Part shown: in pieces, positions 18,081 to 50,616 of the stretch
Layout: every line of letters starts with the position of its first letter
Position numbering within the stretch: position 1 is the stretch's first letter
Origin: Myxococcales bacterium
GTDB lineage: Bacteria > Myxococcota_A > Bradymonadia > REDH01
Assembly: GCA_947496715.1 (NCBI GenBank)
Contig: CANMDT010000006.1
Location: forward strand, 1,121 to 65,120
Direction: 5' to 3'
Length of the DNA: 64,000 nt
Notes under the pieces: model-generated
The model's database searches: none
What the model was told of the DNA's origin: nothing
The model's input: the letters and a program-made list of their open reading frames with translations, nothing else
Made by a program: the position numbers and the translations under genes

Positions 18081-19211
18081 TCAGCGCGTAGGAGCGCTCA
18101 GCAGCCGCGTAACGGCTGGGACATAGAACTGCCAATAGGTGTTCTGCGAGGTGAATGCATCTCGGCGGCGCTCGGTGATGGAGCGGAACCAGGAGAGCCC
18201 AGCGAATCGGTAGCTGCCCGGCTCAAAATCAACGTCCGATAGGTCGGCCGCCATGTAGATGCGGTGCGAGCCGAGGATCACCTTACGGGTCAACAGCGGG
18301 ATGTGTTCAGAGGCGTTCATCTCGCGCAGAAGCACCGGCATGGCAGGCAGGTCGGGCAGGGCGAACTCGGCGAGCACCTCGGTGCCGGGCAGCGCTTCGA
18401 GGACGGGGAACCAGTAGTAGTAGTTTGCGCCGCTCGACGCTTCAGGCAGCAGTTCCTCGCCCTCCGGCGTCAGCATCACGCGGGGCGCGACGCGCGGAGC
18501 ATCGGGGTTGGAGATGAGGAGCAGCCGGCCGTTGCGGTGGATGAAGGCCAAGGTGGGGCCTTCGGGCATGTTGTCGTTGCCATACTGCTGACGGTAGAGC
18601 CGCGGGAGCCAGTGGGGGACATCTGCCGTATCGTACAGGTTGAGAAAGCTACGGCCGGTCCAGCCTGTCCAGTGCACGCCCAGGAGCTCTTCCACGACAG
18701 CGCGCGCCTCTGGCTGCGTGGGCTCTTCGATGCCGTTGAACTCCAAGTAGATGTGGTGGCCTGCGCTGGTAAAGTTTGCAAGAGCGCGGGCGTCGTCGTT
18801 GGAGATGCCGCCGAAGACCTTTTTAGAGAAGTCGATGTGAGCGGTCTCGGTCGCTATGCCGAGGAGGTCGTCGGCATAGACCCCGTAAGAGTCGGTGAAA
18901 AAGATCCACTCCTTGCCGGAAAGGTCGAGCTCGGCAATCGGAGTCTGGACTTCGCGATTGGTCGGGTCGTAACCGGCATGCGAGGTGAGGGGCATCCAGC
19001 GCTCGCCCACGGGGGGCTGATACTTCTCGTGGTTGAGGAGCCAGATGGCGCCTCGGTGCTCGCGCGCAGATTCGAAGGGGACGGTGTAGTCGACCAGGAC
19101 GATCTTGGGCTGCTTCCACGGGGTGAACTGCCAGGTCAGGAACGAGACCCAGACGGGCGCTGTGGCCAGCGCCAGCAGCAGCAGCACGCGGTAGACGTTG
19201 CGAAGGCTCAC
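18081..19211 (-). CDS. Membrane-anchored periplasmic protein of unknown function, co-transcribed with the GT2 synthase
   Basis: N-terminal transmembrane helix LLLLALATAPVWVSFLTW. 376 aa with Trp/Tyr-rich conserved-looking blocks. Its start overlaps the GT2 stop. Confidence 0.55.
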   Translation of the reverse strand: MSLRNVYRVLLLLALATAPVWVSFLTWQFTPWKQPKIVLVDYTVPFESAREHRGAIWLLNHEKYQPPVGERWMPLTSHAGYDPTNREVQTPIAELDLSGKEWIFFTDSYGVYADDLLGIATETAHIDFSKKVFGGISNDDARALANFTSAGHHIYLEFNGIEEPTQPEARAVVEELLGVHWTGWTGRSFLNLYDTADVPHWLPRLYRQQYGNDNMPEGPTLAFIHRNGRLLLISNPDAPRVAPRVMLTPEGEELLPEASSGANYYYWFPVLEALPGTEVLAEFALPDLPAMPVLLREMNASEHIPLLTRKVILGSHRIYMAADLSDVDFEPGSYRFAGLSWFRSITERRRDAFTSQNTYWQFYVPAVTRLLSAPTR

Positions 19212-20608
19212 GAGGCACCAAACCCGCGCCGGGACATGGCGCCCCAGGCCTGAACGCCTCGGAAGTAGTTCACCATGCCGCGGAGCCGCCAGTAGAGCGT
19301 GAGCTGGCGATACCCGAAGTTCTCAATGATGCCGAACATCGTCATGCGGAGCAGGTCGCGCCAGTTGGGGTAGACCGAGAAGGAGATCTCCTCCAGCGCC
19401 AGGGTAGCGACGCTAAGCAGCACACCGAAGAAGAGCGAGACGGTGAGAAAGAGGAGCATGAAGGAGGTATCGACGACTCCGAGCAGGTAGCTGATCGAGA
19501 CCGTCACCAGTCCGACGAGTTCGACGATGGGGCCGAGCATCTCGAAGATGGCGAAGAAGGGAAAGATGACCATGCCGACCACGCCGTAGCGGGGGTTGAA
19601 GAACATGGTGCGATGGCGCCAGATGGAGTCGATGAGGCCGCGGTGCCATCGGTCGCGCTGCCGCCCAAGCTGCTCCAACGTCTCGGGAACCTCGGTGTAA
19701 CAGGTGGAGTCCCAGACGAAGACGATGCGGTAGGGCACATGGTCTTCGCGCATCTGGCGGTGGAGCCGGACGACCAGTTCCATGTCTTCGCCGACGGTAT
19801 CGTGGCGGTAGCCCTGCACCTTGAGCACGGCGTCGCGTGAGAAGAGTCCGAAGGCGCCGGAGATGATCAGCGTTCCGCCAAGCAGATTCCAGCCGACCCG
19901 CCCGAAGAGGAAGGCGCGGAGATACTCGACCACCTGGAAGGCGGGCACGGGCTTCTCGGGCATGCCGATGGCCTCGACCTGGCCGTTGCGGATGGTGCAG
20001 CCGTTCGCCACCCGGACTGTGCCTCCGGTTGCGATGGTCCGGGCGGGGTCGTCGATGAAGGGGAGTGCAAGCCGAAGGAGGGCGTCGGGGCTGATGAGGG
20101 TGTCTGCATCGATGCTGCAGAAGAGGGGGAAGCGGGCCGCGTTGATGCCGCAGTTGAGTGCGTCGGCTTTGCCGCCGTTCACCTTGTCGATGAGCGTAAG
20201 TTTGGGCTCTTTGTAGGACTTGTAGATGGCGACGACAGGCCGGGTCGGGATGACCGCCTGATAGATGGGGTGGACCTCATACATGTCGAAGGCTTCGATC
20301 ATCACCTGCGCGGTGCGATCGGTGGAGCCGTCGTTCACGACGACGACTTCGAACTCGGGATAGCGGAGCGCGAGGAGGGCGCGGACGGAACCTTCGATGG
20401 AAAGGCGCTCATTGAAGGCGGGCGCGATGATGCTGACCGGGTGGGTGTGGTAGCTCCGCAGCGAGCCGTCGAGGTCTGCGGAGATGCGCCTGCGTGCGCG
20501 CAGGAAAATCTCGGCGAGCGAGAGCCCGAAGAGGATCAGGTAGCTGGTGTTCAACCCCACGAAGAAGAAGAGGAAGGCCCAGTCGATGATGTAGATGAAG
20601 CGATCCAA
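19208..20608 (-). CDS. Processive family-2 glycosyltransferase, a polysaccharide synthase of the PgaC/IcaA/NodC/cellulose-synthase type
   Basis: Two N-terminal transmembrane helices, DGSTD, DADT, GGTV..., QRDRWHRG (QxxRW) and four C-terminal transmembrane helices. Confidence 0.8.
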   Translation of the reverse strand: MDRFIYIIDWAFLFFFVGLNTSYLILFGLSLAEIFLRARRRISADLDGSLRSYHTHPVSIIAPAFNERLSIEGSVRALLALRYPEFEVVVVNDGSTDRTAQVMIEAFDMYEVHPIYQAVIPTRPVVAIYKSYKEPKLTLIDKVNGGKADALNCGINAARFPLFCSIDADTLISPDALLRLALPFIDDPARTIATGGTVRVANGCTIRNGQVEAIGMPEKPVPAFQVVEYLRAFLFGRVGWNLLGGTLIISGAFGLFSRDAVLKVQGYRHDTVGEDMELVVRLHRQMREDHVPYRIVFVWDSTCYTEVPETLEQLGRQRDRWHRGLIDSIWRHRTMFFNPRYGVVGMVIFPFFAIFEMLGPIVELVGLVTVSISYLLGVVDTSFMLLFLTVSLFFGVLLSVATLALEEISFSVYPNWRDLLRMTMFGIIENFGYRQLTLYWRLRGMVNYFRGVQAWGAMSRRGFGAS

Positions 20609-20629
20609 GGTGTCGTCTGCTCGGGTGTG

Positions 20630-22078
20630 CTAGCGGTTGGCTTCGAGGTCGCGGACCGAAGTCGCGGAGAAGTTTTCGTCGTCGATATTGAACTCGAAGG
20701 CCAGCGGAGGGAGCTGGTCGGGCGCAACGGCCTCGAGGTAGCCGTCACTGGCAGACAGCGGCGGCAGCTCGTCGAAGGGGGCAAACTGCTCCTCGAAGGC
20801 GAGCGGTGGCAGCGGCGCCGGTTCGTCGAAGCCCCCGTCGGGCAGCGGCTGTGCGAGGATGGAGGTGCCGCCCTCCTCGTCCTCCCAGAAGTTCTCGATG
20901 CCGGAGCGCGGCAGCGGCGCCGGTGCGCCCAGGGGTGCGGCGATGGCGGGGCTGAGCATGGTTGCGCCCCGCCCGAGCAGATAGTTGGAACCCGTATGCG
21001 GGTCTTCGGTGAGGATGCGCTGCGCCATGTCGCGCGCGAAGGGGTCGTTGCTATCAGATGCGATGCGCGCCAACTCTGCGAGGCCGGAATCGCCCAGATC
21101 TCGGAGCGCGGAGGCTGCGTTGAGACGGACCCACCAGCTGGTATCCGAGAGCCTCGTCGCCAGATGTGAGACCATCTCCTTGAGGCCGACGCGACCTGCG
21201 GTTCGCGCAGCCTGTGCGCGGACCTCCCAGCGGTCATCCTCGAGGCCCATAATGATGTCGTCGGGCGCGAGGGTGAGGCGGAGGATGCCCGCCGCGCGAA
21301 AGGCTGCAATGCGGATCTCGTGGTCCTGATCCGTCAGCGCATACTGGATGTAGGGGGCAGAACGGGTGTCGCCCGATAGGGCGAGTACCTCGAGGATGGT
21401 GGCATACAGCCGCGCCTCGGCGCGGGTCTGCGGCGGCTTGCGGAGCAGGGCGCGCAGGCGCGGATGGGCGGCTGAACCGAGGTCGACGAGGATCGCTGCG
21501 ATCTGCGGGCGCGAGATGCCTGCAGGCGTCGCAAGCGAGGCAAGGAGCGGGTCGACAGCGCGGGGGTCGGCGGAGCGGCCGAGGCCACGCGCGGCGGCGA
21601 GTCGGACGGCGGGGACCGGGTCTCGGAGTCTGTCGAAGAGGATCTGCGGCTCGACCTTGCCCTCGAGCATGCCGAGGATACGGACTGCCTCGAGGCGCCG
21701 CCACCAGATGAGGGAGCGGCTGCGACGGACGGCGAAGTCGATGAGTCCGAGTCCTTGGTAGAGGGCTACGAGGTCATCTTGGAGCCTGCTCGCGATGGAG
21801 GAGGCGTAGGCCTCAAGCAGCTCCGCGGCCTCGTCTTTGCGGAGCGGTTTGAGGGTCTTGATGACCTCGGAGAGGGGAATCTCGTTGCTGAGATAGCGGA
21901 CCAGAATCGGTGCGACGCTCCGATTGGCGGCCAACCGTTCGCGCCGCTGCCGGATGCGCCTGAGACGGATCAGGACGACAGCGGCGAGCACCGCGATGAG
22001 CGCAACGAACTGCACGCTGATGAGCCGGACAAAGAGCCGGTAGAGCGGGTCGGTGAGGAGCAGGTCGAAGGTGTTCAT
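20630..22078 (-). CDS. Membrane-anchored HEAT-repeat (PBS-lyase type) protein with an acidic/Pro-rich C-terminal tail
   Basis: Transmembrane helix LISVQFVALIAVLAAVVLI. Repeated D/E-P-x-VR-x-AA-x-ALG HEAT units. The tail carries LPPLAFE twice. The start overlaps the stop of the upstream OMP gene (ATGA). Confidence 0.65.
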   Translation of the reverse strand: MNTFDLLLTDPLYRLFVRLISVQFVALIAVLAAVVLIRLRRIRQRRERLAANRSVAPILVRYLSNEIPLSEVIKTLKPLRKDEAAELLEAYASSIASRLQDDLVALYQGLGLIDFAVRRSRSLIWWRRLEAVRILGMLEGKVEPQILFDRLRDPVPAVRLAAARGLGRSADPRAVDPLLASLATPAGISRPQIAAILVDLGSAAHPRLRALLRKPPQTRAEARLYATILEVLALSGDTRSAPYIQYALTDQDHEIRIAAFRAAGILRLTLAPDDIIMGLEDDRWEVRAQAARTAGRVGLKEMVSHLATRLSDTSWWVRLNAASALRDLGDSGLAELARIASDSNDPFARDMAQRILTEDPHTGSNYLLGRGATMLSPAIAAPLGAPAPLPRSGIENFWEDEEGGTSILAQPLPDGGFDEPAPLPPLAFEEQFAPFDELPPLSASDGYLEAVAPDQLPPLAFEFNIDDENFSATSVRDLEANR

Positions 22079-23610
22079 CGGGCTGCCACCGGAGGCGCGG
22101 CGCGACCAAAGCGACGGGTGAAGCCGAGCGTGAGGGCATGTCGGACGCGGGTAGCGCGATCGGCGCCTGTGTCGGACGGCGCGGTCACGGCGTAACTCAG
22201 TTTTATGGTGGACAGGTAGGAGATGGGGAGTGTGTAGCCGAGATAGGCCCCGACCTGTGGCGAGCCTTCGCGAAGGAGTGCAGGGTCCTGCGACTGGTCG
22301 AAGGGTTCTGTCCCGTAGAGCAGCCAGGCATCCAGGCGCTCTTCATCCGAGATGAGGAGTGTGCCCTTGGCCTGATAGGTGAGGAGCGGCGGTGCAGCGA
22401 CGTCGCCGAAGACGGCCGTCACGCCGGGCTCGAAGAGGAAGCCGTCGAACCGGAGCGCGACGAAGGGGGCAATGAGCTGCACGGTCGGTGTCGTTGCCGG
22501 GGCGCTGCCCGACGCGGGGAGGTCGTAGGAGGAGATGCGGTAGGCTGCGCCAAGCCCGACCCGTTCTCCGAGGTCGATGCTGTTGTCCCACGAGAGGGCC
22601 CAGCTGGGCAGGAACTCGGGGTTGGGCGCAACGGCAAGCGCGAGCCGCGTGTTGTAAATGCTGTTCGGGCGGTAGCGGAGCGAGGGCTCGATGGCGAAGT
22701 CGACGCGGCGTGTCCCGTAACGGCGCGTGTCGAGCACAAAGCCGAGCCCTTCGGCGAACCTGGTGCCGCTATACTCGGCGGCCAGCTGAAGGCTCTGCCA
22801 GTCGGCGTTGCCCTGGCCGGAGGTATCTACGGAGGTGTAGGTGGCGGCTCCGTCGACACGAATCGGCATGAACCGGCGCGCGAGCAGGGCACGCATTGCA
22901 GCCCGCTGCGGGTCGTCGGACTGGGGCGGCAGGGCGTCGAGTTCCTCGGAGAGCCGGGCCAGTTCGTCGCGGTCGAAGAGGACCTGCATAAAGCGGGTGC
23001 GGGCGGCATCGTCTTCGGGCGCTGCTTGAAGATAGGCTGCGTAGCCTTCGATGGCGGTATCGAGGTCACCCGACTGGAAGGCGATCTCAGCGAGGAGTCG
23101 GGTGGCCTCCGTCTGGTCGCTAGCGCTGTCCCGCGCTGCTCCGGCCTCGGCGGCAGCCTCGGCGCGCCGCCCCATCCAGAGTAGAACGCGGGCTGTGGCG
23201 CATCGGAGTTCGCCGTAAGCGGCATACTGAGATTGGAAGGATTGCAGCGTATTCAAGGCGTCGTCGAGGTTTCCCGCGGCGGCCTGAATCTTGGCGTAGG
23301 TGATGGCAACATCAACATCGCCTGGCACGAAGCGGCGGGCGATGCGTGCAGCCTCGAGCGCTTCGCGGAGGTTGCCGGCGGCGAGCGCCTCCTCCGCTTC
23401 GCTGATGAGGCGTGCCACAGAGGGGGTGGCAATCTCAGGAGCGCCTTGCGTCGCCTCGGTCGCGGAGCCTTCGGCCTGGGCAGGCGCAGCGGTGGCGGCC
23501 GAGCCTTCGCCTTCGGCAGCCCGCAGCGTTGCCGGCAGGGCGAGCCACGCGCAGAGCGAGAGGCCCGCAGCCCAGCGGGCGATCGTGCGATTCTGAAGCG
23601 TCACAGACAT
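22075..23610 (-). CDS. Outer-membrane protein: N-terminal TPR region plus a C-terminal beta-barrel (PgaA/BcsC/YaiO-like exopolysaccharide export porin)
   Basis: Signal peptide. TPR-like helices (residues 60-230). The C-terminal 250 aa have alternating hydrophobic residues and end ...LGFTRRF-like strands. Confidence 0.6.
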   Translation of the reverse strand: MSVTLQNRTIARWAAGLSLCAWLALPATLRAAEGEGSAATAAPAQAEGSATEATQGAPEIATPSVARLISEAEEALAAGNLREALEAARIARRFVPGDVDVAITYAKIQAAAGNLDDALNTLQSFQSQYAAYGELRCATARVLLWMGRRAEAAAEAGAARDSASDQTEATRLLAEIAFQSGDLDTAIEGYAAYLQAAPEDDAARTRFMQVLFDRDELARLSEELDALPPQSDDPQRAAMRALLARRFMPIRVDGAATYTSVDTSGQGNADWQSLQLAAEYSGTRFAEGLGFVLDTRRYGTRRVDFAIEPSLRYRPNSIYNTRLALAVAPNPEFLPSWALSWDNSIDLGERVGLGAAYRISSYDLPASGSAPATTPTVQLIAPFVALRFDGFLFEPGVTAVFGDVAAPPLLTYQAKGTLLISDEERLDAWLLYGTEPFDQSQDPALLREGSPQVGAYLGYTLPISYLSTIKLSYAVTAPSDTGADRATRVRHALTLGFTRRFGRAAPPVAAR

Positions 23611-23914
23611 AGCCCGATAGGGTAGCGCGCAAGCGGAGACCCCGCCAGATTTCGCCTAGCACAGGGGCATCTCGCCTGCGAGGAGTCTTTGAGGGTGAAT
23701 CGAGAGCTGAGGGGGAATGTTTCTTCACATGCCAATGATTGCAAAGGGAGGCTTGGGGCTTTGTTGAAGGGCGTGGCAGGGCATAGAAAACTCTCGCGAC
23801 AGCGCCGTGACAGCGAGAGAGCAAAATCCGCTCGACAGGGTGGAAGACTTTGGGTAACATTTGAATTCATGGTCCGAGCGTTCTCGGGCGAAACCTCGAA
23901 CCAAGGAAGATGAG

Positions 23915-24319
23915 ATGGCAAGGATAACGATTGAGGCACGGATCGCGAAGATTCGTCGTGACCGGGAAGCTTTGGAGAAGAAGGAGCAGTCGTTGCTTGC
24001 ACAGAGCACAGACCGGGCCATCAAGAAGATTCTCACGGTCATGAAGGATTCAGGGCTGACTGCGGCGCAGGTGGTCAAGGCTTTGGCGGTTGCGGGCGCA
24101 ACGGCTGCGCCGAACGCGAAGGGGACAAAGGCCGCCAAAACGATTATCAAAGGCGTCAAGCCTGCATTTGCCCCGAAGGCGAAGGGCGGCAAGGTTGCGC
24201 CGAAGTATCGCAACCCTGAGAACGCAGAACAGACCTGGACGGGTCGCGGAATCCCGCCGACCTGGGCTCGTTTGATGCGTGAGGCCGGCCGGCTGAACGA
24301 GTCGATCATTCAAAAGTAG
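23915..24319 (+). CDS. H-NS-family nucleoid-associated protein
   Basis: The C-terminus KYRNPENAEQTWTGRGIPPTWARLMREAG matches the H-NS DNA-binding motif (Y.dEnGe.kTWTGqGRtP). The N-terminus is coiled-coil-like. AAGGAAG ribosome-binding site. It lies in a locally AT-richer patch. Confidence 0.7.
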   Translation: MARITIEARIAKIRRDREALEKKEQSLLAQSTDRAIKKILTVMKDSGLTAAQVVKALAVAGATAAPNAKGTKAAKTIIKGVKPAFAPKAKGGKVAPKYRNPENAEQTWTGRGIPPTWARLMREAGRLNESIIQK

Positions 24320-24514
24320 ACGCAATCTGGAGATGGAATGTCGCGCACTGTCTGAATCGATGCAAATCGAGGGTGACGGTGCGCGATGTCGTTTTGGCCG
24401 AAGCAGAAGGTCATTGTCAGGCCGTCGTCTGCGCTTGATTGAAGCAACGTGCACTCTTACCCAGCGAACCGCCCCGCCGCGCTGAGAGGCGAGAGCGGCA
24501 AACCGAGGAGTGTG

Positions 24515-25576
24515 ATGAGCAGCATCGACGCCACCGCCACCGTTCAAGAATACTATGGCAAAACGCTTCAGACGAGCGCCGACCTCAAGACCAGCGCCTG
24601 CTGCACGCCTGATGCGATGCCGGAGTTCGTAAAGCCGCTCCTGGCGCGCATCCACGATGAGGTGGTGAATCGCTACTACGGCTGCGGGCTCGTCGTTCCT
24701 ACTGCGCTCGACGGCGCCCGGGTCCTCGACATCGGTTCGGGATCAGGCCGCGACGCCTATCTGCTCGCCCAGCTGGTTGGAGAGTGGGGAGAGGTGGTCG
24801 GTGTGGACATGACCGCCGAGCAGCTCGCGGTTGCCCGCTCCCATGTGGAGTGGCACCGCGAGCAGTTCGGGTTTACCCGCGCGAATACGCGGTTCCTCGA
24901 GGGCTTCATCGAGAAGCTGTCGGAACTGCCCCTCGAACCCCACTCCTTTGATGTGGTTGTCTCGAACTGCGTGGTGAATCTCTCCCGACAAGCCAGCGGT
25001 CTTTGCCGGCGCGCGACGTCTGCTCAAGGCGGGCGGCGAGATGTATTTCTCCGATGTCTACTGCGACCGTCGTCTGCCGGAGGCCGTGCGCAATCACCCT
25101 GTGCGCTCTACGGAGAGTGTCTGGGCGGCGCCCTCTACTGGAACGACTTCTTGGGGATGGCGAAGGCGGCCGGTTTTGGCGACCCGCGCCTTGTGACCAG
25201 CCGTCCGCTCGAGATTCTCGACCCGGAGCTGAAGGCGGCCCTCGGCCAGGCAAAATTCTATTCTGCGACCTACCGTCTGTTTGCCATCGATGGGCTGGAG
25301 CCGCTCTGCGAGGATTACGGCCAGGCTGTCATCTACCGAGGCGGGGCGTTGGGCGAGGAGGAGTGCTTTATCCTCGATGGTCACCATGCCATCGAACAGG
25401 GCCGGGTTTTTCCCGTGTGCGGCAATACCTGGCGGATGCTCCAGGACACCCGCTTTGCCCCCTACTTTGACTTCATCGGGAACTTCGACCGCCATTTTGG
25501 CATCTTCCCAGGGTGCGGGACGCTCAATCCGCTCGAGCCCGTGGCAGGCGCTGTTACGGCTGTCGCCTGCTGCTAG
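24515..25576 (+). CDS. arsM: Arsenite S-adenosylmethionine methyltransferase (ArsM-like). The internal 24985-25104 segment is read out of frame because of a compensating indel pair.
   Basis: Motifs CCTPDAMPEF, YYGCGLVVP, VLDIGSGSGRD. The conserved PDKPAVF...GGEMYFSDVY block is encoded only in the alternative frame between about 24985 and 25104. The frame is restored for ALYGECLGGALYWNDF. Confidence 0.7.
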   Translation: MSSIDATATVQEYYGKTLQTSADLKTSACCTPDAMPEFVKPLLARIHDEVVNRYYGCGLVVPTALDGARVLDIGSGSGRDAYLLAQLVGEWGEVVGVDMTAEQLAVARSHVEWHREQFGFTRANTRFLEGFIEKLSELPLEPHSFDVVVSNCVVNLSRQASGLCRRATSAQGGRRDVFLRCLLRPSSAGGRAQSPCALYGECLGGALYWNDFLGMAKAAGFGDPRLVTSRPLEILDPELKAALGQAKFYSATYRLFAIDGLEPLCEDYGQAVIYRGGALGEEECFILDGHHAIEQGRVFPVCGNTWRMLQDTRFAPYFDFIGNFDRHFGIFPGCGTLNPLEPVAGAVTAVACC

Positions 25577-26847
25577 CGGGTGTTGCGGCGGCGCATGGAG
25601 CGTCGGAGCCGTGCGAGCAGGTCGTTGGGCAGGTAGGGCTTGATGAGGAAGTCGTCGGCGCCGACCTCGAAGGCCTTGACGACGCTGTCGTCGCGTGAGG
25701 CGACGGAGGTGACGACGATGGGTGTCTCGTCGTACCGCCTGTCTGCGCGGAGCTGGGCGAGGATGCTGAGTCCGTTGATACCCGGCAGCGAGCTCTCGAG
25801 GATGACAGCGCGCAGGTCGGGGAGGGCGAGCGCGGCGTCGATTTGGGCCCCTGTGGCGGCGATGCGGACGCGGAAGTTCTCGCGTTCGAGGAGCGAGGTC
25901 AGGAACTCCTGCAGCAGCGGGTCGGCCTCGATGACGACGACCAGCGGGAGCTGGTTTTCGACGACGGCGGCGGGCGTGACGATGGTCCGAGCGGGCTGCG
26001 CCGTCGCCTTGAGGAAGAGCGCCTCGAGTTGGGCGATCACCTCGCGGGTGTCGCGCGGCTCGCCGACGGTGAGGGTCGCCGCGACGAGCGGGATGGGGCT
26101 CCTGTCGGAGGCTCCGAGTGCGAAGGGGAGCTCGGAGAGGCGTTCGAGGATGCGGCGCAGCAGGACGATGGCGCTGGCGTCGTCGCAGCCTGCGAGCATG
26201 AGGACGAGCTCGCCGCGGTGGAGGCGGAAGAGGCCGTCGGAGCGTCGGAGGAGCCCGCGGAGTGCCTCTCCGAGCTGTTGGAGGAGCAGGCCCTGTTGCT
26301 CTTCGGTGGCGTTGGCAAGCTTGGCAGCGAGGCCTGGCGCGCCGAGCATGGCGAGCGCGAAGGGTTCGCCGAGCCGCTGCAGGGAGTGGCTGCGGGCCTG
26401 CCAGGCGAGCTGAAAGGCGCGTCGGTTGGGGAGTCCGGACTGTTGGTCGAGCAGGGTCGAGCGCCGGAGCTCGTTGCGGCGCCTGAGGAGTCGGGTGGCA
26501 CAATCGGCTACGGCGTGGCGCTGCAGGGGCTTATCGAGCCGCTCCGCGAGTTCGAGCGCTGCAGGGGGGCGCACGGAGCGGTTGGAGAAGCCGGCCAGCA
26601 TGGCGAGCTCACCTTCGGGCGGCGTCTGGAGCGCAGCAGCGAGCCGGTCGAGTCCCTCATTGGGCAGTTCGAGGTCGATGAGGATGAGCGCGGGGAATTG
26701 CCGCGCGATGGTGGTCAGCGCCCAGTCGACGGCACGAGCCACAACGACCTCACGGTCGAGCGCGGTGAGTGCCTGCTCGGCGATCTTGGCCGCCGCAGGG
26801 TCGTCGGAGATGATGAGGATGAGCTGTTCGGCCCGTTCGATGCGCAT
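25573..26847 (-). CDS. Response regulator with REC-like, degenerate GGDEF and REC domain architecture
   Basis: C-terminal canonical receiver (VVVIEADPLL...DLRAVILESSLPGINGLSIL...FLIKPY). The middle domain starts LLDQQSGLPNRRAF like a GGDEF domain, but the active-site motif reads HRGEL. The N-terminal domain is a degenerate receiver. Confidence 0.65.
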   Translation of the reverse strand: MRIERAEQLILIISDDPAAAKIAEQALTALDREVVVARAVDWALTTIARQFPALILIDLELPNEGLDRLAAALQTPPEGELAMLAGFSNRSVRPPAALELAERLDKPLQRHAVADCATRLLRRRNELRRSTLLDQQSGLPNRRAFQLAWQARSHSLQRLGEPFALAMLGAPGLAAKLANATEEQQGLLLQQLGEALRGLLRRSDGLFRLHRGELVLMLAGCDDASAIVLLRRILERLSELPFALGASDRSPIPLVAATLTVGEPRDTREVIAQLEALFLKATAQPARTIVTPAAVVENQLPLVVVIEADPLLQEFLTSLLERENFRVRIAATGAQIDAALALPDLRAVILESSLPGINGLSILAQLRADRRYDETPIVVTSVASRDDSVVKAFEVGADDFLIKPYLPNDLLARLRRSMRRRNTR

Positions 26848-27935: not shown

Positions 27936-29363
27936 CTAGCAGTCGTAGTAGAGCTCGAACTCCATGGGGGTGGGGCGGAGGCGGTTGACCTGCACTTCGC
28001 GCTCATACTTGTAGGAGATCCAGGCGTCGATGAGGTCCTGGCTGAAGACGTTGCCCTTGAGGAGGTAGGCGTGGTCGGCCTCGAGCGCCTTGAGGGCCTC
28101 ATCGAGCGAACCGGGCGTGCCCGGGATGCCGGCGCGCTCCTCGGGGGAGAGCGAGTAAATGTCCTTGTCGGCGGGCTCGCCGGGGTTGATGCGGTTCTCG
28201 ATGCCGTCAAGGCCGGCGAGGAGGATGGCCGAGAAGGCGAGGTAGGCGTTGCAGGAGGGGTCGGGCGTACGGAACTCGATGCGCTTGGCCTTGGGGCTCG
28301 AGTTGTACATGGGGATGCGGATGGCAGCCGAGCGGTTGCGGCTGGAGTAGGCGAGGCTGATGGGGGCCTCGTAGCCGGGCACCAGACGGCGGAAGCTGTT
28401 GGTGGTGGGGTTGGTGAGCGCGACGAGCGAGGCGCCGTGATGGAGGATGCCGCCGATGAAGTGGAGCGCGGTCTCAGAGAGGCCGGCATACTTGTCGCCC
28501 GCGAAGAGGGGCTTGTTGTCGCGCCAGAGGGAGACGTGGATGTGCATTCCCGAGCCGTTGTCTCCGTAGAGGGGCTTGGGCATGAAGGTGGCGGTCTTGT
28601 TGTGGCGGAAGGCGACGTTCTTCACGCAGTACTTAAACCACTGGAGCTTGTCGGCCATGGTGACGAGGGTGTCGAAGCGCATGTCGATTTCGCACTGACC
28701 GCCGGTGGCGACCTCGTGGTGCTCGGTCTCGATCTCGATGCCGAGCTTCTCCATCTCTACGACCATCTCCTGACGGATGTGACGGACCTTATCGTAGGGG
28801 GGCGCGGGGAAGTAGCCGCCCTTGTAGGGGGCCTTGTAGCCAAGGTTGCCACCCTCATCGCGGCCGGAGTTCCACTTCCCTTCGTCGGAGTCGACCTTGT
28901 AGAAGGCGCCGTTCTGGGTGGACTCGAAGCGGACGTCATCGAAGAGGAAGAACTCCGCTTCGGGACCGAAGAAGGAGGTGGTCGCGATGCCGGTCGACTT
29001 GAGGTACTCCTCGGCGCGCTGGGCGACGGCGCGGGGGTCGCGCTCGTAGGACTGGCCGGTGACGGGGTCGAAGATGTTGCAGATGAGCGAGAGCGTCTTG
29101 CGCTCGTAGAAGGGGTCGATGCGGGCGCTCTTGACCTCGGGGCGGAGGAGCATGTCGGAGGACTCGATGGAGCGCCAGCCGCGGATGGAGGAGCCGTCGA
29201 AGCCCTTTCCATCCTCGAAGAAGGCCTCGTCGAACTGGCTGACGGGCATACCAACATGCTGCCAGGTACCGGGCAGGTCCATGAACTTGAGGTCGATGAA
29301 CTCGACCCCCTCGTCCTTGGCGAACTTCACTACATCCTTGGGCGTCTTGAACTCGGGGGCCAT
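27936..29363 (-). CDS. glnA: Glutamine synthetase type I
   Basis: [35 protein letters not shown], and a C-terminal ...ELYYDC. Confidence 0.9.
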
Positions 29364-34710: not shown

Positions 34711-36687
34711 TCACTCGAGCCGCCACGACTCGAAGGTTGGCGGTCTGGAACGAGAGAGCTCTTCGAGGAAGAGGCTGGCTCGGGCGTAGACGCGGCCTTC
34801 GGTGCGGGAGAAGTAGGTGGCGGGGCGCAGGAGATAGAGGTCTCGTTTTGCGCGCGTTGCGGCAACGTAGAAGAGGCGCCGTTCCTCTTCGAGGTCATCT
34901 CCCGTTGCGGAGCGGGCCGAGGGGAACTGGTCTTCGGCGAGCCAGATGAGGAAGACGGACTGGAACTCGAGCCCCTTGGCCTGGTGGACGGAGGAGAGGA
35001 TGACCCGCTCGGTCTCGGGGTTGGCGTCGGCCTGGAAGTCGGATCCGGTGCCTGGGTCGAGGGCGAGTGAGTCGAGGAACGCGGGGATGTTGGGCTGTCC
35101 GGCGGCGTATGCGACGAGTGTGTCGAGGTCTCGGATTCGGTTAGCAGGGTTGTCGTCGATGCGTGCGAGGAGGTCGTCGTAGAAGGCGGCGCGGAGCCGT
35201 TCGATGGCGCGTGAGGGGCTCTGCTGCAGTTCCTCGGAGAAGAGCTCGGCGAGGACCTTTGCGATGGGTTCGAAGGCGCCAGCTGCCCGCTTTGGGATGG
35301 AGAGGAGTCGCGGGTTGCTGAGTGTCTCGGGGATGGCGCCGCAGGAGAGGAGCTGGTCGTGGATGCGGGCTGCGGCTGCCGGTCCGATACCGTCGACGAG
35401 CGTGGCGAAGCGGAAGAAAGCGATGGTATCGCGGGGGTTAGCGGCGAACTTCAAGAGCGAGAGGACATCTTTGATGTGGCGCTGCTCGAAGAACTTGAGG
35501 CCGGAGCGGATCTCGAAGGGGATGTTGCGGCGGCCGAGCTCGATCTGGAGCTCCATGGAGTGCCAGTGGGCGCGGTAGAGGACGGCGATGGAGGCGAGTT
35601 CGACGCCCTCGTCGCGGAGTTCGAGGATGCGCTGTGCGACGAAGGCGGCCTGCTCCGACTCATCCCGGGCGATGATGTTGGCGGGGATGGGGCCGGAGGG
35701 GTTGGAGGTGAAGAGCTGTTTGGGGAACTGGGCCGGATTGTGGCTGATGCTAACGTTGGCGAGCGCGAGGAGCTCGGGCGAAGAGCGGTAGTTCTGCTCA
35801 AGGTTGTAGGTGACGGCTTCCGGGTAGCGCGTCGGGAAGTTGAGGATGTTGGAGATGTCGGCGCCGCGGAAGGAGTAGATGGCCTGACAGTCGTCGCCGA
35901 CGACCATCACGGAGCGGTGTCGTGCAGCCATGAGGTCGACGATTTCGCACTGGATGGGGTTGGTGTCCTGGAACTCGTCGACGAGGAGGTGGTCGAAGCG
36001 TCGCTGCAGGGATTCGCGGACGTCGTCGTGTTCTCGGAGGAGGCGGCGCCAGAGGACGAGGAGGTCGTCGAAGTCGGTGACACCGGCCTCGAACTTGCGG
36101 CTCTGGTAGAGGGCGATGCAGTCGCCAATCTCTGATGTGAGTGCGGAGAAGGCCGAGGCGCGTTCGAGGATGAGTGGCTCGAGGTCGCGTTCTGTGTTGA
36201 TGGCTGCGGAGAGGAGGTCGCGGAGGGTCGAGGCCTTGGGGAAGCGGGTATCAGGCGGCTTGGTGATGTCGGCGGCGCAGCGCTTCATAAGACCTTCTGC
36301 ATCTTCACGGTCGAGCGTTGCGAAGTTGGGGGGCAGGCCAAAGCGGTCGGCGTGCTCTTGGATGAGCCGTCGGCCGATGGAGTGGAAGGTGCCGCTGGCG
36401 ACGGCGTAGCCTGTGCGGCCGAGGAGGTCGGCGAGCCGTCGCGACATCTCGGCGGCGGCCTTGTTGGTGAAGGTGAGCGAGAGGATGCGCTCGGGCCGCA
36501 CGCCGGCCTGGATAAGGTGGGCGATGCGGTGGGTGAGGGTGCGTGTCTTGCCTGAGCCGGGTCCGGCGATGACGAGTGCGGGCTGGAAGGGAGCTGTGAC
36601 GACGGCGCGCTGCTGATCGTTGAGGCCGTCGAGGTGGGCGGGGACCGGCACGGGGGCCGTTGGCTGCATTCGATAGGTCTTGCTCAT
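34711..36687 (-). CDS. UvrD/PcrA/Rep-family ATP-dependent DNA helicase
   Basis: LNDQQRAVV...VIAGPGSGKT...LTFTNKAAAEM...VDEFQDTNP motifs. The first 123 codons of the listed ORF are upstream shadow. Confidence 0.8.
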   Translation of the reverse strand: MSKTYRMQPTAPVPVPAHLDGLNDQQRAVVTAPFQPALVIAGPGSGKTRTLTHRIAHLIQAGVRPERILSLTFTNKAAAEMSRRLADLLGRTGYAVASGTFHSIGRRLIQEHADRFGLPPNFATLDREDAEGLMKRCAADITKPPDTRFPKASTLRDLLSAAINTERDLEPLILERASAFSALTSEIGDCIALYQSRKFEAGVTDFDDLLVLWRRLLREHDDVRESLQRRFDHLLVDEFQDTNPIQCEIVDLMAARHRSVMVVGDDCQAIYSFRGADISNILNFPTRYPEAVTYNLEQNYRSSPELLALANVSISHNPAQFPKQLFTSNPSGPIPANIIARDESEQAAFVAQRILELRDEGVELASIAVLYRAHWHSMELQIELGRRNIPFEIRSGLKFFEQRHIKDVLSLLKFAANPRDTIAFFRFATLVDGIGPAAAARIHDQLLSCGAIPETLSNPRLLSIPKRAAGAFEPIAKVLAELFSEELQQSPSRAIERLRAAFYDDLLARIDDNPANRIRDLDTLVAYAAGQPNIPAFLDSLALDPGTGSDFQADANPETERVILSSVHQAKGLEFQSVFLIWLAEDQFPSARSATGDDLEEERRLFYVAATRAKRDLYLLRPATYFSRTEGRVYARASLFLEELSRSRPPTFESWRLE

Positions 36688-36780
36688 CGCGATGGGCCTG
36701 CGGCTCCGGAGCGGGCGTGGGCGATAGACCCGCGACGGCTGCTGTGATACGATGCTAAGCGCGGAAGTCGCAAGCGGCGA

Positions 36781-37797
36781 GTGAAGTTGCTCACACGGCG
36801 AGGGTTCAGCGTGGCGAAGCTGTTGTTTGTCGACCAGGGGATTTCGACTGAGTGCTTGCTCGACGATAGGGCGGGTGAGATTTCGCTGGGTCGGAGTCCA
36901 TCTTGCACGGTTCGGGTGAACAATCCGAGTCTGTCGCGGGTGCATGCGGTGCTTGTTCGCGAGGGGAGCCCTGCGCGCTACCGGGTCTTTGATCGCGGCT
37001 CGTCGAACGGCACCTACGTGAACGGGCAGCGTCAGGCGGAGGCGCTGCTGCGTCACGGCGACCAGCTGATGTGTGGCGAGTTTATCTTCCTGTTTGTGGA
37101 CGATGCCGGCGCCATGGGCGGCGCCGAGTCGCGGTCGATGCCGCCGATGCCGAGCCCGATGCAGACGCAGGGCAGGATGGCGCTGGAGGTCACGGAGCAG
37201 GCAGAAGAGGCATCTCCGGAGGGCAGCGACGCGGCTCCTCCGGTGGGCACCCGTTCGTTGCGGCCGCTGTCGACCGATGCGCAGATAGCGCAGGTGACCG
37301 AGGATGGGTTTTATGCTGCGCTGGAGCAGGCCGACGCTCTCCGGATGGAGCTGGAGATGTCGCAGCGCGAGCGGGAGATGCTGTCGGAGCAGGTGCGGGG
37401 GCTGATGTTCGAGGTGAACCGGCTGCGGAGCGAGCCGCAGACAGCGCTGGAGCAGGCAGCACTGTCGGAGGGTTCGATGCTGGGCGAGGATGTGGTTCGG
37501 CGGCAGTCACTGGAGCAGATGGGCCGCCTCCGGGGTCAGGTGGAGAAGATGGCTGCGGAGCGCGAGGAGCTGCTGCTTCGCTGCCGTCGGTTGACGGAGC
37601 TGGAGCAGGAGAACCGTCGGCTGAAGGAGCAGGTTGCCGCGGCAGCCGGTTCTGCTCCGTCGGAGTCGGAGCTCGGCGGGCGCCTGGAGAAGATGAAGGA
37701 GGCCTTCATGCAGCTCGACACCGAGATGCTCGCGTTGGAGGAGGTGAACCGTGGGCTTCGGACTGAAGTGGAGCGGCTGCGGGGCGGCGGTCGGTGA
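36781..37797 (+). CDS. FHA-domain protein with a long C-terminal coiled coil
   Basis: FHA core ISLGRSPSCTVRVNNPSLSRVHAVLVREG...RVFDRGSSNGTYVNGQR. The C-terminal half has ERE/LRR heptads. Confidence 0.7.
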   Translation: MKLLTRRGFSVAKLLFVDQGISTECLLDDRAGEISLGRSPSCTVRVNNPSLSRVHAVLVREGSPARYRVFDRGSSNGTYVNGQRQAEALLRHGDQLMCGEFIFLFVDDAGAMGGAESRSMPPMPSPMQTQGRMALEVTEQAEEASPEGSDAAPPVGTRSLRPLSTDAQIAQVTEDGFYAALEQADALRMELEMSQREREMLSEQVRGLMFEVNRLRSEPQTALEQAALSEGSMLGEDVVRRQSLEQMGRLRGQVEKMAAEREELLLRCRRLTELEQENRRLKEQVAAAAGSAPSESELGGRLEKMKEAFMQLDTEMLALEEVNRGLRTEVERLRGGGR

Positions 37798-38609
37798 GTC
37801 GGTTCGGGCAGTGGCTGCTGGTTTTGGCTCTGCTCTTGGGACCTGTCGGAGCGAGTGCTACTGAGCCGCTGGCTGTGGCAACCCGCCTGCGCGAGCTGGC
37901 CTCGATGCCGGAGGCGCAGCGGCTGGCAGGGCAGCGCACGCTGGCGGAGCGTGGCGGTGAGGTTGTGGCGGCGCTGGCGTTGGCGGCGGCCGATCGCAGT
38001 CTGGCCGATGAGGTGACGCAGGTAGCGCTGGTGGTCTTGGGGGAGGTTGGGAGCGCGGAGGCCTGTGCGGGGCTGCCGAACGAGGCTGCGCTGGAGGGGC
38101 GGAGCGCGGCGATTGGGCTCGCGGCGGCGGTGGCACGGGCGCGTTGCGGGGGCTTCTCTGCGCTGCAGCTGCGGCTTGGCTCTGTGGATGCCCGGGTGCG
38201 TGCGAAGGCGGCTGTGGCCTTGGGCATTCTGGGTCGCAGCGAACTGTTGGTGCCGGTGGTAGCGGCGAGCAGCGACCCTGTGAATGCGGGCTATGCGACC
38301 TTCTGGGCGCTGGCGCGTGGGCTGATGGGAGACGGTTCGGTGTCGAGCGTGGTCGAGGTGCTGGAGCGTCAGCCTGCGACGGCGCGGCTCGGCTGGCTGG
38401 CGCGTATGCGGAGCTCGCCGCTTGGTCCTGCGCCTGACTGGCAGCCGGGCTGGCTCGAAGAGGCAGACCCGCTGACGGGCGAGGCGCTGGTGGGTGAGTA
38501 TCTGCGCCGGTGCGAGGCGATGCCGGAGGCGGTCGCCAAGGCCGCGGCGCTGAAATGGCCTAGGCTTGCGCCGCGTCTGGCACAGGGCTGCGGGGAAGCG
38601 TTACCGTAA
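37794..38609 (+). CDS. Secreted Ala/Leu-rich HEAT-like repeat protein (hypothetical)
   Basis: Signal peptide MSRFGQWLLVLALLLGPVGASA. Its start overlaps the FHA gene stop (ATGA). Its 3' end overlaps the convergent histidine kinase by 50 bp. Confidence 0.45.
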   Translation: MSRFGQWLLVLALLLGPVGASATEPLAVATRLRELASMPEAQRLAGQRTLAERGGEVVAALALAAADRSLADEVTQVALVVLGEVGSAEACAGLPNEAALEGRSAAIGLAAAVARARCGGFSALQLRLGSVDARVRAKAAVALGILGRSELLVPVVAASSDPVNAGYATFWALARGLMGDGSVSSVVEVLERQPATARLGWLARMRSSPLGPAPDWQPGWLEEADPLTGEALVGEYLRRCEAMPEAVAKAAALKWPRLAPRLAQGCGEALP

Positions 38610-40122
38610 AGCGGGCGCCGCCAAGGGGGCCGGAGGGGGTGACGGCGATGGTGCCACCCTGGAGTTCGATGATGCGCCGCGAGATGGTGAGGCCGAGCCC
38701 TGTGCCGCCGGGTCGGCGGGTCCAGAAGGGCTCAAAGAGGTGGGGAAGGTCGGCTGCGGCGATTCCTGGGCCGGAGTCGTCGATGTGGATGACGGCTGTG
38801 CTCGGACTGAGTTCGGCAGAGACTTCGATCATTCTCGGCCTGCTCTCGGGGGAGGCGTCGAGGAGTCGGAGGGCGTTCTGGAGCAGGTTGAGGAAGACCT
38901 GCTGCAGGCCGTCTGTGGAGCCCAGCACACATGCCTCTGCGGGGATGGCTGCGGCGATGCGTGTCTGGTTTCGGGCTGCCTCGGGTTCGAGGAGCAGGAG
39001 GAGGCTTCGGAAGAGAGAGGTCAGGTTGACGGGTTCGTCGTCGATGCGGGGCTGCCGTGCGAGGCTGAGGTAGTCTTCGGTGAGCGCGTTGAGTCGGGCG
39101 ATATCGGACTCGATGCGGCGGAGCGCGAAGCGGGCATCTTCGCTTGCGCCGGTGAGGCTGTCTGCGAGCATCTCGGCATTGAGACCCATGCTGGAGAGGG
39201 GGTTTCGGATCTCGTGGGTGATGCGGCTTGCGAGCTCACCTGCAGCTGCGAGGCGTTCGGCGCGGAGTCGGGCGTCGTGCTCGCGCTGGAGTGCGTCGTT
39301 GGCGGCTTCCAACTCCTGGTTCTGGGTGCGGAGCCGCTGGTCGCGCTCGGAGATGCTGGCGCTCATGTGGCCAAACTCGCGAGCGAGGTCGCCGATTTCG
39401 TCGTCGCTCTCGGGTAGTTCGGCGGCACGGTAGTCGCCTGTCCGGAGCCGGAGTGCGGCTACGCGGAGTGCGTCGACGGCGCGGAGTGCGCGGGCGACAT
39501 AGAGCAGGGCGATGGAGGCGACAGCGAGACTGAGCGCGACGGCGATGACAACATAGCGGACGGTCTGCTGCTCCTTCTCTCTCGCGAGCTCGAAGGCCCG
39601 GTCTGCGAAGCCATCGACGAGGGTGCCGAGCCGGTCGATGCGGCTCTCGAAGCGGGTCGCGAGCCGCTCGGCATCGCGCTGCTTGGCATCGACGGCGCTG
39701 GTGTTTGCTTCGAGTTCGACGGCGAGATCGCTGATGCGGGCCCTGAGTCGCTGCTGCTCTACGTGGAGCTCTTCGGAAGCGCTGATAAGTGAGCTGATGA
39801 GCGAGGCGGCCTCGACGCCTGTGGCCTCTTTGGCGAGGAGTTCGATCTGGCGGTCGAGCGTGATGAGGGCATGCTCGAGGCGTAGCATGGAGGGGTTGAG
39901 TTCTTGGCTGTTGCGGAGGGTGCGCCGGAGGGCTTCGGTGTCGTTGAGCGCGAGTGCGCGGCCGACGGCGCGGGACTCGCGGCGGAGCTCGTCGAGCTGG
40001 CGGCTGACGGGGACAAAGTCGTCGTGGATGAGCGAGAGGTCGGTGATGAGCGAGCGGACGCGCACGGCCTGGTAGGCGATGGCGCCAGCGGCCGCGAGGC
40101 TGGAGAGCAGCACTGCTGCCAT
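38560..40122 (-). CDS. Sensor histidine kinase (transmembrane, HAMP-like, HisKA, HATPase_c)
   Basis: H-box ITHEIRNPLSSM, N-box LLQNALRL, G-boxes DSGPGI and GGTGLGL. The start is uncertain (ATG 40122 or GTG 40233). Confidence 0.75.
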   Translation of the reverse strand: MAAVLLSSLAAAGAIAYQAVRVRSLITDLSLIHDDFVPVSRQLDELRRESRAVGRALALNDTEALRRTLRNSQELNPSMLRLEHALITLDRQIELLAKEATGVEAASLISSLISASEELHVEQQRLRARISDLAVELEANTSAVDAKQRDAERLATRFESRIDRLGTLVDGFADRAFELAREKEQQTVRYVVIAVALSLAVASIALLYVARALRAVDALRVAALRLRTGDYRAAELPESDDEIGDLAREFGHMSASISERDQRLRTQNQELEAANDALQREHDARLRAERLAAAGELASRITHEIRNPLSSMGLNAEMLADSLTGASEDARFALRRIESDIARLNALTEDYLSLARQPRIDDEPVNLTSLFRSLLLLLEPEAARNQTRIAAAIPAEACVLGSTDGLQQVFLNLLQNALRLLDASPESRPRMIEVSAELSPSTAVIHIDDSGPGIAAADLPHLFEPFWTRRPGGTGLGLTISRRIIELQGGTIAVTPSGPLGGARFTVTLPRSPVPDAAQA

Positions 40123-40241
40123 GACGCGGGCGATGAGGGAGCGACGCGAAATCAAGCGTGTCCTTGGCAACCTTCGTTGACGATTTGGCGCAAAGCAGAG
40201 TAACCGCATCGCGGTCGGAGATTGTCGCCGCACGGAGGCAC

Positions 40242-41762
40242 ATGTTCAAGAAAGTCTTGATCGCGAATCGAGGAGAGATCGCGATTCGCGTAATGCGCAC
40301 GCTCAAGGAGATGGGGATCGCGACAGTAGCGGTCTACAGCGAGGCCGATAGGCGGGCGCTGCATGTCCGATACGCTGACGAGGCCTACTGTGTTGGTCCG
40401 GCGCCGAGCCGCGAGAGTTACCTCCGGATGGACAAGATTCTGGAGGTCGCGAAGCTGACGGGCGCCGAGGCGATCCACCCAGGCTACGGCTTCCTTTCGG
40501 AGAATGCGGAGTTCGCGCAGGCCTGTGCCGATGCGGGTGTGGTCTTCATCGGTCCTCCGCCCTCGGCGATCGAGGCGATGGGCGAGAAGACCGCCGCGCG
40601 TCGCCGGATGATCGCGGCGGGCGTGCCTGTTGTGCCTGGTACCGAGCACCCGATTCCGACAGCCGCAGAGGCGCTGGTGTTTGCAGAGGCAATCGGCTTT
40701 CCCGTGCTGATCAAGGCTGCGGCCGGCGGCGGCGGCAAGGGCATGCGTCGCGTGGACGAGGCGTCGCGGTTCGAGGAGGCCTTCGACGGGGCGAGGCGCG
40801 AGGCGCGGTCGGCCTTCGGCAACGAGGCCTGCTACGTGGAGAAGTTCGTGGTCGAGCCGAAGCATGTGGAGATTCAGGTGCTGTGCGACGAGCATGGCAA
40901 CGGGGTCTCGCTGTTCGAGCGCGACTGCAGCGTGCAGCGGCGTCACCAGAAGGTGATTGAGGAGTCGCCCTGCGCGGTGCTGTCAGACGAGATTCGCCGC
41001 AAGATGGGCGAGGTTGCGGTGCAGGGCGCGAAGGCCGTTGGCTACGTGGGCGCCGGCACCTTCGAGTTCCTGCTCGACCGGGACAAGAACTTCTACTTCC
41101 TCGAGATGAACACCCGCCTTCAGGTGGAGCACCCCGTGACCGAGGCCGTTGTGGGTGTAGACTTGGTGGAGGAGCAGCTGCACATTGCGGCAGGGCTGCC
41201 GCTGCGCTTCACGCAGGAGCAGCTCTCGCAGCGCGGTCACGCCATCGAGGTGCGCATCTACGCGGAGGACCCCGCGAACCAGTTCTTGCCGTCGCCGGGC
41301 CTCATCCGTCGCATGGTTGTTCCGCAGGGGCCGGGCGTGCGAAACGACAGCGGCTACGACTCGGGCACCGAGGTGAGCCTGCACTACGATCCCATGGTGG
41401 CGAAGTTCATCGTCACGGGCGAGACGCGGGAGAAGGCGCGGCTGCGGCTGCTCCGGGCGCTCGACGAGTACCAGGTGGATGGCATCGCGAACAACATTGC
41501 GTTCCTCAAGGCCTGCCTTGTGGAGCCCGACTTTGTGAGCGGCAGCTACGACACCGGCGTTGTGAATCCGATCCTGGAGCGTTTCAAGGCGGTGAAGCCG
41601 CTTGAGGGCGAGGACGAGGCGCTGGCGCTCGCTGCGGCTGCGCTGTCGCTTCACCTTCGTCGTGCGCAGTCGGCATCGCCTGCGGCATCTGGTGGCGAGA
41701 CGGACCGTGATGGTTGGCGTGACTTTGGCAGAGCGCGGCAGGTTAGCCGCCTCTCCACCTAA
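40242..41762 (+). CDS. accC: Biotin carboxylase (acetyl/propionyl-CoA carboxylase biotin carboxylase subunit)
   Basis: MFKKVLIANRGEIA...GYGFLSEN...EMNTRLQVEHPVTE. About 55-aa C-terminal extension. Confidence 0.85.
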   Translation: MFKKVLIANRGEIAIRVMRTLKEMGIATVAVYSEADRRALHVRYADEAYCVGPAPSRESYLRMDKILEVAKLTGAEAIHPGYGFLSENAEFAQACADAGVVFIGPPPSAIEAMGEKTAARRRMIAAGVPVVPGTEHPIPTAAEALVFAEAIGFPVLIKAAAGGGGKGMRRVDEASRFEEAFDGARREARSAFGNEACYVEKFVVEPKHVEIQVLCDEHGNGVSLFERDCSVQRRHQKVIEESPCAVLSDEIRRKMGEVAVQGAKAVGYVGAGTFEFLLDRDKNFYFLEMNTRLQVEHPVTEAVVGVDLVEEQLHIAAGLPLRFTQEQLSQRGHAIEVRIYAEDPANQFLPSPGLIRRMVVPQGPGVRNDSGYDSGTEVSLHYDPMVAKFIVTGETREKARLRLLRALDEYQVDGIANNIAFLKACLVEPDFVSGSYDTGVVNPILERFKAVKPLEGEDEALALAAAALSLHLRRAQSASPAASGGETDRDGWRDFGRARQVSRLST

Positions 41763-41775
41763 GCGGAGCAGGACG

Positions 41776-43315: not shown

Positions 43316-43319
<4 letters not shown>
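42306..43319 (-). CDS. meaB: Methylmalonyl-CoA mutase-associated GTPase MeaB/ArgK
   Basis: [26 protein letters not shown] motifs. Confidence 0.85.
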
Positions 43320-45441
<2,122 letters not shown>

Positions 45442-45445
<4 letters not shown>

Positions 45446-47133: not shown

Positions 47134-47393
47134 GGGACCACGCTCTGGCGGATTGGTTGTTGGGCAGGGTAGTCGGGGGCGGGTTGGCCTGCAACCGATG
47201 GCGCAAAGTTGGCAGGCGGGTCTGCAAAAAGGTGCGGCTTTGCGCGCGGCGATGGAGGCGCGGGCGCAGTGGGAGCTGAGGCGGCGCGGGCGGCGGCGCA
47301 GGTTGGCGAAGTGGGTGCGGATTGTGTGCGTGCGTGGCACGAATCTTGTAGACTTGAGCAGGCAGGGCGCAGTCGCGCCAAAGCAGGTGATGC

Positions 47394-49947: not shown

Positions 49948-49957
49948 GGGAGCCAAG

Positions 49958-50614: not shown

Positions 50615-50616
50615 CG

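Follow-up and report, generated by a model that had tools for sequence, protein, structure and literature searches.

A frameshifted arsM pseudogene whose reading frame was probably reopened by a second-site insertion in a freshwater bacterial population

The window, that is, the whole 64,000-nucleotide stretch of DNA analysed here, carries an open reading frame for a homologue of As(III) SAM methyltransferase, arsM, which lies between a gene for an H-NS-like protein and a gene for a response regulator with a GGDEF domain (Table 1). Retranslation of the arsM frame reproduced exactly the protein quoted in the initial annotation, ...VVSNCVVNLSRQASGLCRRATSAQGGRRDVFLRCLLRPSSAGGRAQSPCALYGECLGG..., which around the region of interest reads ...VVSNCVVNLS RQASGLCRRATSAQGGRRDVFLRCLLRPSSAGGRAQSPCA LYGECLGGALYW..., and the alignment of close homologues shows that they share its start, MSSIDATAT. 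The H-NS-like protein matches PF00816 in its C-terminal domain only (E 2e-10), and the gene keeps this position in all related contigs. The GGDEF gene is convergent with arsM and overlaps it by 4 nt, so that no gene of the same operon follows arsM on its 3′ side and operon polarity cannot explain a selection to reopen the arsM frame. Up to 10 kb on each side, the neighbours are housekeeping and regulatory genes, encoding the H-NS-like protein, TPR and HEAT repeat proteins, a glycosyltransferase, ribosomal protein S2 and EF-Ts, together with the GGDEF response regulator, a thioredoxin-reductase-like protein, glutamine synthetase, P-II and DapA/DapB. Among the 43 ORFs screened over the whole 64-kb window, no ArsR, ArsC, Acr3, ArsB or ArsA domain was found; arsM thus stands alone, without ars operon partners in 64 kb, as had been noted for arsR, arsC and acr3.

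Table 1. Positions of arsM, its neighbours and the features discussed in the text
Feature	Position in window	Strand	Basis and remarks
arsM, compensated-frameshift allele (As(III) SAM methyltransferase homologue)	24515..25576	+	353 codons, open throughout; ORF and translation
Shine-Dalgarno-like GAGGAG, 4 nt before the ATG at 24515	24505..24510	+	Sequence inspection
Cys152 codon, equivalent to As-binding Cys174 of CmArsM	24968..24970	+	Retained, 5 residues before the block
Site 1, (TC)3 where intact alleles have (TC)4	24979..24984	+	DNA alignments; -2, frame shifted after codon 157 (after NLS)
Out-of-frame block, codons 158-197	24986..25105	+	Native PDKPAVFAGARRLLKAGGEMYFSDVYCDRRLPEAVRNHPV replaced by RQASGLCRRATSAQGGRRDVFLRCLLRPSSAGGRAQSPCA
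Site 2, GCGC where all other contigs have GC	25103..25106	+	+2 tandem duplication; native frame back from Leu198
Cys202 codon, equivalent to As-binding Cys224 of CmArsM	25118..25120	+	In frame again, 5 residues after the block
H-NS-like protein, 5′ neighbour of arsM, no ars gene	23915..24319	+	PF00816; 134 aa as called on related contigs
Response regulator with GGDEF domain, 3′ neighbour of arsM	25573..26847	-	3′ end overlaps arsM by 4 nt

Elsewhere in the window lie a gene for a methylmalonyl-CoA mutase with a B12-binding domain (915 residues), beside MeaB and a biotin/lipoyl-domain protein (41,602-46,063), a type IV pilus minor-pilin/PilY1-like cluster with N_methyl motif and PilY1 beta-propeller (47,394-54,222), and an RND efflux pair of OEP and AcrB-type proteins (57,931-62,585); the latter two bear no relation to arsenic. 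The exact mutase product, for which the start codon was chosen by us, is absent from the contig index. At the species level, the nearest genomes are MAGs from freshwater lakes, labelled delta proteobacterium or Bradymonadia, with 86-93% DNA identity to the window. All of them have an in-frame arsM.

The arsM product of the window still matches the ArsM family on both flanks of the out-of-frame block (Table 1), and the alternative frame, from about 24985 to 25104, encodes SPDKPAVFAGARRLLKAGGEMYFSDVYCDRRLPEAVRNHPV. The proposal of the initial annotation that the alternative frame restores the ArsM core is borne out. By adding TC at the TC repeat and removing CG/GC from GTGCGCTC, a protein of 353 residues reading NLSPDK...HPVLYGEC is obtained, which is identical, residue for residue, to P0123, a protein present on 5-6 other ENA and Logan contigs. 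This repaired protein aligns without gaps and over its full length to 5evj_A (E 2.2e-106, residues 7-336) and to 4fr0_A (4fr0/4kw7; E 6e-92), and it is likewise gapless against the close homologues, 9/9 of which read NLSPDK...HPVLYGEC. The Pfam Methyltransf_31 match, which in the window allele ends at residue 159 and reaches profile position 89 of 145 with 75 bits, extends to residue 219 with 109 bits upon repair. Against NCBIfam NF008823 the window allele scores 104 bits and the repaired protein 166, both values being below the curated cut-off of 263, and other NCBIfam ArsM models also give scores below their cut-offs. In the 4kw7/4fr0 alignment, Cys29, Cys57, Cys152 and Cys202 correspond to Cys44, Cys72, Cys174 and Cys224 of CmArsM, the four conserved cysteines of that enzyme, of which Cys174 and Cys224 form the As-binding metalloid site (PMC6138428). 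These four cysteines are invariant in 50 homologues, and the window allele encodes all of them in frame. A single NCBI contig (68,836 bp) is the only known source of P0121, the protein of the annotated frame.

DNA alignment to intact contigs establishes the indel pair as -2/+2, with both members in dinucleotide contexts and the length of the protein unchanged. The first lies in a TC repeat spanning codons 156-158, and the second in the sequence GTGCGCTC (25101-25108), where 18/18 comparable contigs read GTGCTC. The initial annotation was right that two indels leave the ORF open and replace its core, and its estimate of about 37 residues falls short of the 40 codons concerned, of which 39 are changed. 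Its placement of the indels needs revision at both sites: what was taken for a slip in a C-run near 24984 is a (TC)4 repeat shortened by one unit, and near 25103, where a G had been thought missing from an expected GTGGCGC, there is instead an extra GC. A +1/-1 repair through GTGGCGC was rejected, as the resulting NL-PDK and HPVALYGEC are both shifted by one residue against every homologue and the solved structures. The roughly 120 nt between the two sites are 100% identical to the intact alleles, and the indels aside the window arsM has no substitution at all relative to them. The pair fits the definition of a compensatory frameshift, in that neither indel is divisible by 3, their sum is, and the 40 shifted codons contain no stop. 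An ancestral in-frame state and the direction of change are established by intact alleles in 7 assemblies and in sister species, and by an intermediate, contig L109, described below. Programmed ribosomal frameshifting or transcriptional slippage was also considered and rejected: two shifts would be needed (-2 or +1, then +2 or -1), the sites have no slippery heptamer or long homopolymer, and an intact DNA allele exists.

The shifted block falls exactly between Cys152 and Cys202. Of its 40 residues, 39 differ from the native ones, Ala167 being the sole coincidence; the net charge goes from +2 to +7, and hydropathy is only weakly correlated with that of the native block (r = 0.28). All 15 columns of the block that are invariant across 50 homologues are changed (15/15). 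Lost with them are helix alphaD, strand beta5 (GGEMYFSDVY, motif III of SAM methyltransferases) and the DRRLP...HPV loop before Cys202, so that the class I SAM-methyltransferase core, made of beta4 NLSPDK, alphaD and beta5 GGE(M/L)YFSDVY, is not intact in the ORF as it stands. AlphaFold2 still puts a helix and a strand in the block, with pLDDT for residues 151-200 of 68-79 against 86-97 in an intact relative run likewise with a 51-sequence alignment, a fall of only 10-20 points and a weak indication since the alignment imposes the fold. When 60 residues of the scrambled block were searched against 5.8 billion cluster representatives, no candidates were obtained; this negative carries little weight, as the window protein's own cluster is represented there by a fragment of only 46 residues. 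From the translated sequence, we infer that the product of the window allele would be unable to fold or to methylate arsenite. The suggestion that arsM is a recently inactivated pseudogene that still looks intact agrees with these results, given the lack of substitutions relative to intact alleles, the change of every invariant position of the block and the fall of the Pfam and NCBIfam scores there.

Contigs carrying exact neighbour proteins or an antisense-ORF marker allowed the locus to be compared among assemblies. The marker is a 66-codon antisense ORF in the 5′ half of arsM (24,743-24,943, minus strand), almost certainly spurious, which public pipelines call only if arsM is frameshifted; it is present on 18 contigs and marks broken alleles. 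The -2 deletion alone, which leaves arsM broken, was found in 11 other assemblies (ERZ27280329, ERR5863121, ERZ28614158, ERZ27280309, ERZ27265269, ERZ27280257, ERZ27280287, ERZ27265267, SRR13399485, SRR6475631 and ERZ27280234), and an intact gene in 7 (ERZ4201065, ERZ27280192, ERZ27280196, ERZ27280245, ERR3856789, ERZ27280310 and ERZ27280213); some of the runs may underlie some of the assemblies, and independent samples are somewhat fewer than these counts. The -2 assemblies come from several studies and assemblers (ENA MEGAHIT, SPAdes-style and Logan). The -2 deletion is a true, widespread polymorphism. Its product from the ATG has 317 residues, 157 native and 160 out of frame, and on such contigs gene callers give a 177-residue C-terminal fragment starting from Met177. 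One of them, L109 (ERZ27280234, 44 kb), carries the -2 allele and shows no substitution relative to the window over 20544-26367, GC being the sole difference; with it, the path from the intact allele through -2 to -2/+2 is fully represented at about 99.9% identity. Scans of JGI metagenomes for each variant junction gave 0 matches, and they are uninformative because the common -2 junction was missed as well, that collection being without this population.

Both (TC)3 and (TC)4 occur on each of three SNP backgrounds, and all four allele combinations (4/4) are found with the flanking SNPs at 22500 and 25252. Between 22692 and 25252 the near-identical contigs have no SNP except one singleton; with no informative SNPs in the 2.5 kb around site 1, recurrent slippage and recombination are not distinguished as the means by which the -2 allele spread. 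The population is visibly mosaic, and recombination explains the allele combinations. Tight blocks of SNPs occur in varying combinations among contigs at 19,500-20,600, 22,604-22,692, 25,252-25,408, 25,690-25,960 and 28,326-28,476, a pattern typical of frequent homologous recombination and densest in the glycosyltransferase gene (19,208-20,608). In NODE_841 of ERZ4201065 (L081, 5,641-5,740), about 375 bp of this gene (window 19,880-20,254) are swapped for about 100 bp of unalignable sequence, and the gene call for the glycosyltransferase shrinks there from 466 to 206 aa, making it a second strain-disrupted gene in the neighbourhood.

The two indels differ in support: site 1 is found in 11 other assemblies, and site 2 in the window assembly alone, the GC insertion being missing from 18/18 other contigs that cover the site and also from a near-identical reassembly of a sample. 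The gene encoding the -2/+2 product (P0121) is not on record in the gene-position contig index, and a literature search by sample and run accessions found no paper. The insertion may nevertheless be judged against the quality of the surrounding record. Of the 64,000 window bases, 50,087 are covered by contigs with 98% identity or more, of which two reach 100% identity, along 17.3 kb and 11.3 kb respectively, and only the stretch 35,577-49,489 is without near-identical coverage. Compared with the closest contigs over these 50,087 bases, the window differs by indels nowhere but at the two sites in arsM, and its sequence has no N. Were one stray indel to fall in these 50 kb, it would have about a 0.3% chance of landing, in the right phase, within the 480-nt stop-free interval where it reopens the frame. 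On balance, the GC insertion is probably a true second-site mutation.

A less likely alternative, which we nonetheless take seriously, is that the -2 pseudogene is real and the GC at 25103-25104 is an assembly or consensus artefact from a strain mixture, the intact ORF then being accidental. The GC is private to one assembly, and it is conspicuous in a window that has essentially no private substitutions. In the reassembly ERZ28614158 (SAMN08297396; L115), of which other scaffolds are 99.98-100% identical to the window and 100% over 17.3 kb, arsM is the -2 allele without GC, and a scaffold gap of 100 N (2,595-2,694 of that contig, corresponding to window 25252-25666) begins 148 bp 3′ of site 2, at the first strain SNP. 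The absence of GC together with this nearby gap makes local assembly trouble in a strain mixture a live alternative, and the window record may itself derive from a mixture that is hard to assemble at site 2. A Logan contig from SRR6475631 (L112), which ends at 25314, likewise lacks GC. Set against this are the lack of any N or of any other indel discrepancy in 50 kb and the narrow interval and phase that a random error would have had to hit. De Bruijn assemblers invent no k-mers, and tandem duplication of a dinucleotide is an ordinary spontaneous mutation; both speak against an artefact. As a side observation, the L115 gap covers the 3′ ends of arsM and of the GGDEF gene, and no GGDEF gene is called there, an example of how mixed strains disrupt the locus in certain assemblies.

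It is rather improbable that (TC)n works as a phase-variable switch, arsM being on or off as the tract slips between 4 and 3 units, with GC as a second-site suppressor in an "off" line, a reading that overlaps the others and does not exclude them. The occurrence of both tract lengths on each of the three SNP backgrounds, in all four combinations with the flanking SNPs, is what such a switch would give, but recombination in a mosaic population gives the same pattern. Four units are short for a contingency repeat, and the tract is not conserved in sister species, where L001 reads CTGTCGCCC and L003 CTCTCGCCT.

Still more doubtful is adaptive compensation, in which the -2/+2 combination would have been selected and the reopened allele, its alphaD-beta5 core replaced by 40 out-of-frame residues, would be a working protein, either a partly or weakly active methyltransferase with a new alphaD-beta5 or a soluble As(III)-binding protein acting through Cys152 and Cys202. 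A frame-restoring second-site change is improbable by chance, the four conserved cysteines and the entire C-terminal domain are kept, the AlphaFold2 model retains a helix and a strand in the block, and fixed compensatory frameshift pairs are documented (PMC8935012, PMC8127213). However, the 15 invariant positions replaced include those of GGE.YFSDVY, hydropathy hardly follows the native pattern and the net charge is changed by +5. The allele is also seen in only 1/19 assemblies, and the single-frameshift allele is common, which means that loss of arsM is evidently tolerated. If adaptive compensation were true, the same lake populations would still contain the ancestral, the broken and the rescued allele, all segregating, and the locus would document, step by step and in nature, how a compensatory frameshift makes new sequence inside a conserved catalytic domain.

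The idea of an intact gene in which sequencing or assembly produced both indels can be dismissed: compensating indels in pairs are indeed a well-known sign of sequence error, but 11 further assemblies, made in several studies with several assemblers and lying on three SNP backgrounds, show the first indel as well. Of the suspected pair of homopolymer-type assembly errors, then, the part concerning site 1 falls and neither site is a homopolymer slip, whereas the GC at site 2 may still be an artefact.

The reading we prefer, with a probability of roughly 0.6, is that arsM became a pseudogene through a natural frameshift and that an insertion at a second site later reopened its frame. In its first step, which is documented by the assemblies, one unit of (TC)4 was lost in a recombining freshwater population related to the Bradymonadia MAGs. 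In the second, which we take to be a true mutation seen in this assembly only, GC would have been tandemly duplicated 120 nt further 3′ on a -2 allele identical to that of L109. This duplication would return translation to the native frame at Leu198 and yield the 353-codon ORF accepted by gene callers, and the predicted product would retain all four catalytic and As-binding cysteines without the alphaD-beta5 core. The second change may have been favoured by removal of the 160-residue nonsense tail, or it may be a neutral coincidence; a selected insertion would be expected in more than one sample, but it was seen in one.

Gene callers and even domain searches accept the ORF as a methyltransferase, so that surveys estimating arsenic-methylating capacity from arsM counts would overcount here, where 11/19 assemblies carry the single-frameshift allele. 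In a protein tree, the window allele would be set about 11% away from relatives with 99.6% identical DNA, the same distortion as has been described for viruses by Park and Hahn (PMC8127213). The practical value of the locus is a caution for functional inference based on arsM and for phylogeny at the protein level. If GC is confirmed, three stages of a compensatory pair are present in one natural bacterial population, stages that are usually only inferred afterwards (PMC8935012).

Compared with known systems, the repaired protein resembles ArsM/AS3MT, represented by CmArsM (PDB 4FR0/4KW7) and Chlamydomonas ArsM (PDB 5EVJ), in its full-length homology, its cysteines and its three-domain length. 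The window allele differs from these enzymes by having 40 out-of-frame residues between the As-binding cysteines, with the alphaD-beta5 core of the Rossmann fold gone; even the repaired protein stays under the NCBIfam ArsM cut-off (166 vs 263 bits), and it has no ars partners in 64 kb. MAG frameshift pseudogenes and indel artefacts are similar in that a gene annotated as intact carries frame errors, but in arsM the first indel is demonstrably biological and, the two sites aside, 50 kb of the assembly show no indel. Phase variation at simple sequence repeats (contingency loci) also involves a change in length of a dinucleotide repeat within an ORF that switches the frame, with both lengths present in the population. 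In arsM, however, the repeat counts no more than 3-4 units and L001 and L003 lack it, unlike the long, conserved tracts with rapid and reversible switching that mark such loci.

The arsM indels also resemble compensatory frameshift pairs, which have been described in vertebrates and insects (Biba, Klink and Bazykin, 2022, PMC8935012) and in RNA viruses (Park and Hahn, 2021, PMC8127213), and which share with arsM zero-sum indels, a short stop-free shifted stretch and nearly unchanged DNA that encodes a radically different peptide. Published pairs are mostly fixed between species or viruses and are inferred afterwards, whereas for arsM a single bacterial population contains the ancestral, the single-frameshift and the compensated allele side by side, at about 99.9% identity. 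What is shifted, moreover, is a conserved catalytic core and not a segment of low conservation, and the second indel is known from one assembly only. The arsM case is thus a compensatory frameshift pair atop an ordinary frameshift pseudogene polymorphism and is not new in kind; what is unusual is that all three stages have been sampled in one bacterial population and that the shifted segment is the conserved catalytic core of the enzyme.
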